Of a stretch of DNA of 64,000 bases, positions 14,841-16,790 are shown piece by piece. The first letter of the stretch is position 1. Every line of letters begins with the position of its first letter. The position numbers and the translations under genes were made by a program. Origin of the DNA: Pristiophorus japonicus. Taxonomy: Eukaryota. The notes beneath the pieces were generated by a model. The model was given only the letters and a program-made list of their open reading frames with translations. It was not told the origin of the DNA and ran no database searches. The stretch lies in contig NC_091997.1 of assembly GCF_044704955.1 (NCBI RefSeq), positions 34,658,001 to 34,722,000 on the forward strand. The letters are read 5' to 3'.

Positions 14841-15442
14841 TTCGCTTTCCTGTTCAGTGAAATGTTCCTGCAGAAGATCTCGAAAGAGCCCACCTGCGCC
14901 TCGAAACAGCACTTGTGTCCTGGGGCAGGTGCTCCCCTATGATTCACCCTGATTGGTGCTGGGGTCAGAGTCAGAAGGTTGTGGGGTCAAGTCCCACTCC
15001 AGGGACTTGAGCACAAAAATCTAGGCTGACACTCCAGTGCAGTGCAGGTTGAACCTCTCAAATCCGGCACTCTTTGGTCCGGCACCCTCCCTGGTCCGAC
15101 ATCATTCCCGGCGAGGGGTCACAACCCGTGCTGTGTCATGTGTTCATCAAGTTGAGTCATTTTTAAGAGTATGTAGAGTATAGAGTAAGAAAGCCGACAG
15201 GGAAAGGGCGATTGCTGTCTTTACACACAGATCCCTATACGCGATAAAGCACTTGGGTGCCCACAAAAGTCGATTCCTCCAAACGATGCAGACATCAACC
15301 AAAGCAAAACAGGCTGAAAGCTGCCACAGATCTGGGGCACAAACGCCGGTGAGCGGGCAGGGTGGGCGGCCCTCGGGCCCAGTGACATCGTTGTTGCCCA
15401 CCCGTCGACAACACCCCCTGCCCCCAGCTGCCGCTCGCTCAC

Positions 15443-15514
15443 CTTTTTGATGTTGAACTTGGAGGCCGGATGGAAATCCTTTCTATACATGAAATTGGCG
15501 AATGATTTTCCCAT
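15443..15514 (-). pseudogene. CIR1: Captured CIR1 (corepressor interacting with RBPJ) coding exon 1
   Basis: [24 protein letters not shown] versus vertebrate CIR1 N-terminus [24 protein letters not shown] (recalled); similarity ends at the donor AAG/GTGAGC. Confidence 0.88.
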
Positions 15515-15663
15515 GTCGACGGGAACTGCATCACAGCCGTCACGCCTGACAATGGGATTGGGATCAGGACGTAGCGAGGCACTACAGAGCGGGCAGGAGC
15601 ATTGCCGGGTCAGAGAGGAGGTGAGGGGATCTTAGTGTTTATTTAAACCGGGTACTGCTGACC

Positions 15664-15705
15664 ACGCTGCTGACAACGACCCGGGCAGGTCGTTGTCAGC
15701 AGCGT
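15664..15705. repeat. Perfect 18-bp inverted repeat with 6-nt loop
   Basis: acgctgctgacaacgacc-cgggca-ggtcgttgtcagcagcgt. Confidence 0.97.
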
Positions 15706-15708
15706 TGC

Positions 15709-16608
15709 CAGACCTCTGTGATGGAATCAGCTACCTCCAGTACCAAAACTCAGAAAACAAATGCTGATATACGGCGCCCGGAGAAGCCACCATATTCTAC
15801 AAAGCCCGGATTGTGATGGCTATCCAGAGCTCTCCCACCAAGCGGCTGACTCTCAGCCAGATCTACCAGTTCCTCCAGAGCCGCATCCTCTTTTTCCGAG
15901 ACTCCTGCCAAGGCTGGAAGAACTCCGTGCGTCACAACCTCTCCTTGAACGAGTGCTTCACCAAACTGCCCAAGGGCCTGGGCAGACCTGGCAACGGCCA
16001 TTACTGGACCATTGACCCGGCCAGCGAGTTCATGTTTGAGGAGGGCTCCTTCAGGCACAGACCAAGGGACTTTTGCAGGAAATGCCAAGCCCTTAAGCCC
16101 ATGTACAGCATGATGAACGGATTGGGGTTCAACCACATCGCAGGGACCTAGAACTTTCAAGGTTCAAGAGGGCCCATCTCCTGCTCCCCCAATGACCTTT
16201 CATTAGATAGCATCAGCATGATGAATTGACATTTGCCCAACAACGCTAACAAATGGGTTTACCAGGACATTCTGTCTCTCACCTCTCACCTCTCGGCCAA
16301 CAATGGTAACTATATGGGAAGCCGTGCAGGATCTTTGGTCGAAGACCAACCCAACCACACAGACAGCTCATTGCCCGCGTCTCCCTCGGTGACCAGTGGT
16401 GGGGTGATGGAACCTCACTCTATGTACACAACCTCGGCTTCAGCATGGGCTCCTTCAGCCTCCACGCTCAATAATGGGGCTTCTTACATCAAACAGCAGC
16501 CCCTCTCCCCGTGCAACCCATCGGCGAATCTCATGTCCAACCCACAAGCACACTCCCTAGATCAGTCCTATTTACATCAAAATAGCTATAACACGGCCGA
16601 TATACAAG
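15709..16608 (+). pseudogene. FOXF1: Captured FoxF1 exon 1 (forkhead domain), 5'-clipped and disabled
   Basis: [30 protein letters not shown], 1-bp deletion near 15798, then [15 protein letters not shown]...[15 protein letters not shown]...[15 protein letters not shown] at 16149; [14 protein letters not shown]...NTADIQG/gtacgg donor; no exon 2. Confidence 0.92.
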
Positions 16609-16790
16609 GTACGGAGCCCATGGTACTAGTTACAGATTAGCAAAAATAGCTTTTGTAAGAAGCAATTCTAAAACTTTACTGACAGTGGGGTTTTAAGCCT
16701 TGGGTCGACGTGACCTCCCGTGGTCCGGAAAATTCTCTGGTCCGGCACAGGCCAGGTCCCAAGGGTGCTGGATTAGAGAGGTTCAATCTG

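Follow-up and report, generated by a model that had tools for sequence, protein, structure and literature searches.

First exons of CIR1 and FoxF1 carried by a multicopy, non-autonomous TIR transposon in Pristiophorus japonicus

How did first exons of two unrelated host genes come to lie in one small transposon, and do they have any function there? This question is raised by an element found in a 64,000-nucleotide stretch of the Pristiophorus japonicus genome (the window, as we call the whole stretch analysed). The element (15045..16790) is a 1746-bp non-autonomous, TA-targeting TIR transposon carrying host DNA, i.e. a Pack-TIR. An earlier note on this DNA had proposed a unit of this length with 28-bp TIRs, and comparison of the TIRs (15045-15072 and 16763-16790), which are identical at 24 of 28 positions, bears this out. 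The element interrupts a SINE, whose 5' part (14965..15042) and 3' part (16793..17340, the end being approximate), both on the + strand, align with intact SINE copies when rejoined. The dinucleotides next to it are TG on the left (15043..15044) and TA on the right (16791..16792), as read from the flanks. When the flanks are joined without the element, 3 of their 19 alignments to other SINE copies cross the junction, where intact copies read CAGTA followed by CTGAGG. As these copies have TA at the junction, the TG on the left is a TA changed by mutation. The proposed split of a SINE at its TA thus stands with regard to the split itself, while the left duplication needs the correction that it is now TG; the realignment of the flanks also agrees with insertion of the whole unit as one piece.

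A C2H2 zinc-finger gene of the + strand surrounds the element, with one exon on either side (about 10601-10802 and 25500-25750). These exons have PDB matches to WT1, KLF and EGR fingers and are of the Sp/KLF type; we take the gene to be Sp2-like. Two other repeats were seen in the window: a MITE of about 330 bp (about 10069-10402) with a related TIR, resembling locus L088 and lying just 5' of the zinc-finger exon, and a retrovirus-like stretch (about 2400-9400, - strand) in which open fragments resembling gag, pol and env were recognised by eye.

Inside the element, the left end of a MITE backbone (15045..15138, +, including the left TIR) is the end also seen on cargo-free elements. It is followed, on the - strand, by the first 300 bp or so of CIR1 intron 1 with its GT donor (15139..15442), by CIR1 coding exon 1 of 24 codons (15443..15514) and by CIR1 5'UTR with upstream DNA (15515..15646), all three matching one parental locus, L066. 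A palindromic remnant of the backbone's hairpin repeat comes next (15647..15712, inverted repeat I2), at the pivot of an inverted duplication and at the 5' join of FoxF1. The + strand then carries FoxF1 exon 1 from codon 29 (15709..16608), assigned by its parent L019, a Pfam Forkhead match (E 2.8e-29) and named FoxF1 matches. Comparison with the parent identified the start of FoxF1 intron 1 with its GT donor (16609..16644) and a second intron piece (16647..16675) from 442 bp further along the parental intron. The last parts, both on the + strand, are a tail common to a sister subfamily, F (16676..16698, the end of the 168-bp insert of form F, with which it was compared), and the right end of the backbone (16699..16790, including the right TIR), recognised from the TIR and from cargo-free elements. 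As the interior is fully assigned to backbone and cargo, it holds no transposase, just as had been claimed; the head-to-head arrangement of CIR1 (-) and FoxF1 (+) was also read correctly, the exons facing apart. The FoxF1 exon of this copy is decayed, with 2 stops and 3 frameshift indels.

Both parental loci were found. In the FoxF1 parent (L019, contig C13), exon 1 is an open frame of 327 codons, the first 28 of which are missing from the cargo. A 1772-bp consensus, built from 17 long copies of the element, is 97.65% identical to this parent over 937 ungapped bp, reaching into intron 1, and, after 442 bp of parental intron are passed over, agrees again at 29 of 29 bases; the window copy is 89% identical. 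The earlier note had described FoxF1 exon 1 with its donor and about 90 bp of intron. Exon and donor are confirmed, while the 90 bp proved to be made up of three parts, namely the first 36-39 bp of intron 1, the 29-bp piece, and about 23 bp which are the tail common to subfamily F. When the C-terminal portion of one copy was compared with proteins, 7 of the 15 matches bore the name FoxF1 or FoxF1-like and not one that of FoxF2.

For CIR1, exon 2 was located by its Pfam Cir_N match and equals residues 25-55 of human CIR1 (PDB 6zym). Exon 1 (L066, contig C3) lies 15.5 kb upstream of it. The consensus agrees with L066 at 435 of 493 positions and at a further 26 of 28, over upstream DNA, the 24 codons and about 290 bp of intron, which amounts to 88% identity with gaps and about 93% by substitutions. 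The CIR1 exon, donor and roughly 300 bp of intron that had been proposed on the - strand all match this parent. Two candidates were rejected: L034, as the CIR1 parent, since it is another element, and L061, the best Cir_N match, as CIR1, since it is a different gene, presumably CWC25-like. In L066 (400-802), a LINE fragment with a 12-bp duplication lies in the parental intron at the breakpoint of one element form (form A, below) and is a later insertion; a similar, differently structured LINE occupies the same CIR1 site in L049 (2078-3154), which suggests a preferred target.

Both exons thus continue into their own intron 1, unlike in a retrocopy. Since introns are retained while the second exons are missing from both cargos, the capture was from DNA, as had been suggested for both genes. 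The flanks of L019 and L066 have no TIR match, in keeping with the Pack-TIR definition, by which parents are free of flanking TIR elements. The gap in parental identity (97.65% against 88%) arises because FoxF1 is constrained: against the consensus the parent has pS 0.079 and pN 0.004, and synonymous FoxF1 divergence (7.9%) is close to non-coding CIR1 divergence (6.6-6.8%). Dating of the captures by parental identity was rejected on this ground. When compared with the 90% identity cut-off used for Pack-TIRs, the FoxF1 consensus lies above it (97.65%), the window copy just below (89%), and CIR1 at 88% with gaps or about 93% by substitutions; judged by sequence identity, the captures would be older than the cut-off of Tan et al.

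The same chimera occurs at many sites. A DNA search covered the 5.9-Gb genome in 4318 contigs, and 40 of 3662 candidates were scored. At least 42 loci bear FoxF1 cargo, 38 of them counted by hand among the 40 scored (parent excluded) and 4 found separately. At 50 recognised ends over 32 loci (both ends at 18 of the 32), the target site reads TA in 42 cases, TG in 4, CA in 2 and otherwise in 2, and the flanks are all different (50/50); homology among copies ends at the TIRs. An identical layout on many contigs cannot be due to chance. The further copies with TIRs, CIR1 and FoxF at other TA sites, for which the earlier note had advised a search, therefore exist, and its idea of a Pack-TIR with multicopy spread is strengthened by the same junctions, with TA duplications, at dozens of loci. 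A 25-mer of CIR1 exon 1 has 60 genome matches including the parent (control 0), i.e. about 59 element arms, and the TIR pattern has 1586 (control 0). Because TIR matches far outnumber cargo copies, most family members carry neither gene. Two pairs of similar CIR1-bearing matches (G000:C15:62751129/62796944 and G000:C16:128.63 Mb/C4186) are probably local or assembly duplicates. The 17 long copies differ from the consensus by 4.0-8.5% outside CpG sites and by 17-37% at CpG sites.

The capture left a series of element forms, whose junctions can be read directly. Among 40 listed left ends, 12 were fetched, picked for having no CIR1 pattern match nearby; 5 belong to form E, 4 to C2, and one each to G, F and c72. 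Form E is an empty MITE of 350-411 bp with the same ends as the loaded elements. Its internal hairpin, whose 18-bp stem encloses a loop of 10 nt (GGTAAGTCTA), folds in 5 of 5 copies (-8.7 to -21.2 kcal/mol). Form A (5 complete and 2 partial copies seen) has about 580 bp of CIR1 inside the hairpin loop, and its right join contains filler DNA made up of an inverted stretch of the parental intron from just beyond the break, together with a few stem bases. In form B (6 copies with both ends, 1 partial, 1 carrying an additional insert), the left interior has given way to a second CIR1 copy in inverted orientation, with 2 bases shared at the join. Form C, to which the window element belongs, has exactly the left junction of form B. 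Its 5' FoxF1 join lies in the stem repeat and shows TCAG microhomology (4 shared bases, chance 0.016), and its 3' join into the right end of form F shows AAACT microhomology (5 shared bases, chance 0.005). C2 is a deletion derivative of form C. The CIR1 consensuses of A, B and C differ by at most 1.7%, and the three forms share one CIR1 capture.

Two further forms are G (3 copies), in which the left interior is duplicated in inverted orientation and the right stem arm is lost, and F, which is form G plus the 168-bp insert (40 scored of 111 candidates); the right end adjoins the insert in 8 of 8 fetched copies. The insert gave no Pfam match in the 4 of 4 frames searched. Its best TIR-free match, a stretch of L098 (825-913) corresponding to its 3' half, is only 83% identical over 92 bp and was not accepted as parent. 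One element carries a further insert (c72) of about 250 bp, present twice and in inverted orientation where the hairpin lies (L072:792-1051, L089:756-994). In other single copies (L033:2107-2590, L074, L035), other repeats or unnamed DNA were inserted at or next to the central palindrome, and L080, L082, L083, L086, L087 and L088 have the same or similar TIRs with other interiors, some of which may hold further cargo.

Our preferred explanation is stepwise capture of host DNA by a MITE, followed by spread through a transposase acting in trans. We put its probability at about 0.8 overall, and at less for its details. The starting point would be an empty element of about 410 bp (form E) of the TA-targeting IS630-Tc1-mariner group with its internal hairpin. 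A break at the hairpin loop, filled with about 580 bp of the CIR1 5' end, would give form A, and a fold-back at the repeat, swapping the left interior for an inverted CIR1 copy, form B. Template switching from the left half of B onto FoxF1 exon 1, across 442 bp of skipped intron and into the right end of F, would then produce form C. In general terms, breaks at or beside the inverted repeat would be repaired by microhomology-guided switching onto other loci and sister elements, and products keeping both ends would be amplified by the trans-acting transposase, C and C2 among them, with the cargo presumably methylated and decaying neutrally after insertion. The order of steps, the mode of repair, the breakage and role of the hairpin and the partner transposase are what we infer from these forms. 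CIR1-arm divergence is 4.7% in A, 6.8% in B and 5.5% in C, so that A is not the oldest by this measure, and the tree of CIR1 arms is star-like; the order of steps is therefore based on structure, together with 2 sites at which only C is derived relative to A and B. The small distance between the A, B and C consensuses argues that the steps linking E, A, B and C were close in time.

The inserts of A, F and c72 begin 5, 0 and 9 nt past the same stem motif, all within 10 nt of where the left stem ends. For three uniform breakpoints, falling within 12 nt has a probability of 0.0075, a figure computed after seeing the data and for three events. The hairpin repeat is thus a possible hot spot of capture. 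An intact hairpin is not needed, as form F arose in backbone G, which has no right stem arm. It is tempting to go further and regard the repeat as a reusable loading site, repeatedly repaired from unrelated loci while subfamilies recombine. Given the 1586 TIR matches in this genome, this would mean a Pack-MULE-like serial capture by Tc1/mariner-type MITEs in sharks, involving many more genes and on a scale undescribed in vertebrates, an idea which we put forward tentatively and consider somewhat more likely to fail than to hold.

A different view of the element's success is that the cargo itself helped. If CpG-island cargo kept master copies open and unmethylated in the germ line, loaded elements could have been favoured. 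Both identified parents are indeed CpG-rich first exons (CpG o/e 0.81 and 0.67), and the consensus has a CpG o/e of 0.73 against 0.44 in the window. We consider this benefit unlikely, because some 59 CIR1 arms against 1586 TIR matches do not point to any advantage in amplification, form F, whose insert is CpG-poor, amplified at least as well, the empty backbone is by eye GC-rich itself, and CpG is lost quickly from inserted copies. The earlier note had inferred that the family samples promoter-proximal, GC-rich DNA, a bias which is not supported: beside the cargo from the two CpG-rich parents there are two other inserts with 43% GC, one of them with a CpG o/e of 0.38.

It is also plausible to ask whether the exons are put to use, for instance as a truncated FoxF1 expressed from the reversed CIR1 CpG region or as an exon spliced through its donor. 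The earlier note had spoken of an exon-shuffling system. On one hand, the consensus has an open FoxF1 frame of 316 codons, which starts at an ATG of its own and ends at a stop past the donor; one copy, L007 (2134-3081, +), keeps this frame open in full, and the window copy lies between zinc-finger exons with its FoxF1 donor on the strand of that gene. On the other hand, in a selection test of 15 copies (2 rearranged copies were excluded) pooled omega was 0.99: outside CpG sites, 426 amino-acid changes were to be expected and 421 were observed; the raw pN/pS of 0.64 was rejected as a sign of constraint, being a CpG effect that gives 0.99 without CpG sites. Stops or frameshifts occur in 14 of the 15 copies. 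L007, the sole exception, has no deficit of amino-acid changes (P 0.32) and many replacements in its forkhead, and one open frame among 15 would arise by chance with P about 0.11. As the exons face apart, no CIR1-FoxF1 fusion transcript can be made, and FoxF1 exon 1 brings no acceptor. With an omega of 0.99 and this layout, an exon-shuffling system in the productive sense is not supported, and we consider such use quite improbable. By the tests run, the cargo is dead and decays like ordinary pseudogenes. Among the sequencing runs listed with the sequence there was no RNA run; the best five are DNA or unlabelled and belong to a single organism, and the source sample may be among them.

Finally, gap filling at a single locus after insertion, which is the usual route in animals according to the relevant passages of PMC8277862, is refuted together with mis-assembly for the family of the window element by the same junctions at dozens of loci with different flanks, just as retained introns and missing second exons speak against a processed retrocopy and the end of homology at the TIRs against a segmental duplication, so that we give this whole group practically no weight.

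How does stepwise capture by a MITE compare with known systems? The TA duplication at 42 of 50 ends is in keeping with the IS630-Tc1-mariner group. Pack-MULEs have long TIRs and target duplications of 9-11 bp. The window element, with its 2-bp TA and TIRs of about 28 bp, works similarly but is not one of them. Its interior falls within the 100-5000 bp between both ends of one TIR element by which Pack-TIRs are defined, the ends are those of the empty MITE, and the same chimera with separate target duplications makes it a multicopy Pack-TIR. The TA target and the short TIRs agree with the Tigger/pogo-like label of the earlier note. TIRs of 26-29 bp are in the short range of pogo and Tigger (at most 40 bp and 8-33 bp, respectively, in the passages of PMC7386202 and PMC9219625 on TIR length), a length which is not diagnostic against Tc1/mariner.

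In their account of animal Pack-TIRs, Tan et al. 2021 (PMC8277862) give 370 cases, 115 of them TcMariner. The sections on copy number mention 4 multicopy cases in reference genomes (one example having 3 copies) and Ssk-FB4 with 4 copies, explained by template switching and subsequent transposition; the FB4 target duplication is given as 9-10 bp. As far as that description goes, those elements resemble ours in internal host DNA, a TIR-free parent, breakpoint microhomology and distinct target-site duplications, and differ from it in that here there are at least 42 loci, two genes from two contigs, surviving intermediates and a shared insertion site. The word 'shark' is absent from the main text of that paper, while its supplements list species and cases which could bear on novelty. 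The literature we searched contains no description of the family; Repbase and Dfam lay outside this search, and the backbone may already be named there.

In plants, Gisby and Catoni 2022 (PMC8903248) report that 19% of rice Pack-Mariners carry several loci, and the passages concerned describe cargo-bearing Mariner elements that are non-autonomous, families with both empty and loaded groups, and stepwise second insertions, much as here. They tie acquisition by plant Pack-TYPE elements to mobilisation of neighbouring elements, and no hairpin site is described in them. Turmoil-1 of C. elegans (Sela et al. 2008, PMC2572040) resembles our element in its fragments of two unrelated genes, of which one contains an intron, in a hot spot proposed tentatively and in its pseudogenised cargo. 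Unlike it, Turmoil-1 belongs to the Harbinger superfamily, with cargo inside 760-bp ITRs, and the part of the paper dealing with its 9 copies, one of full length, describes no intermediate series. Bat Helitrons, as portrayed in the relevant parts of PMC4224331 and PMC4778049, likewise spread host gene pieces in high copy in a vertebrate, but they do so by rolling-circle transposition, with neither TIRs nor a TA duplication.

The scattered, decayed FoxF1 and CIR1 fragments left by this family can mislead annotation. One public model from P. japonicus, named 'forkhead box protein F1-like' (P0001), joins an RNase H fragment to a decayed FoxF1 exon that has 88% identity with the element cargo, and is probably an annotated pack copy. 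Gene capture by cut-and-paste elements is well known in plants and has been reported mostly as single-copy in animals, in which multicopy or two-gene Pack-TIRs are reported to be rare; the present family, in a vertebrate, combines capture from two genes with a copy number of 42 or more. Because the empty element and the intermediates survive in it, the mechanism of capture is readable from the junctions and can be tested.
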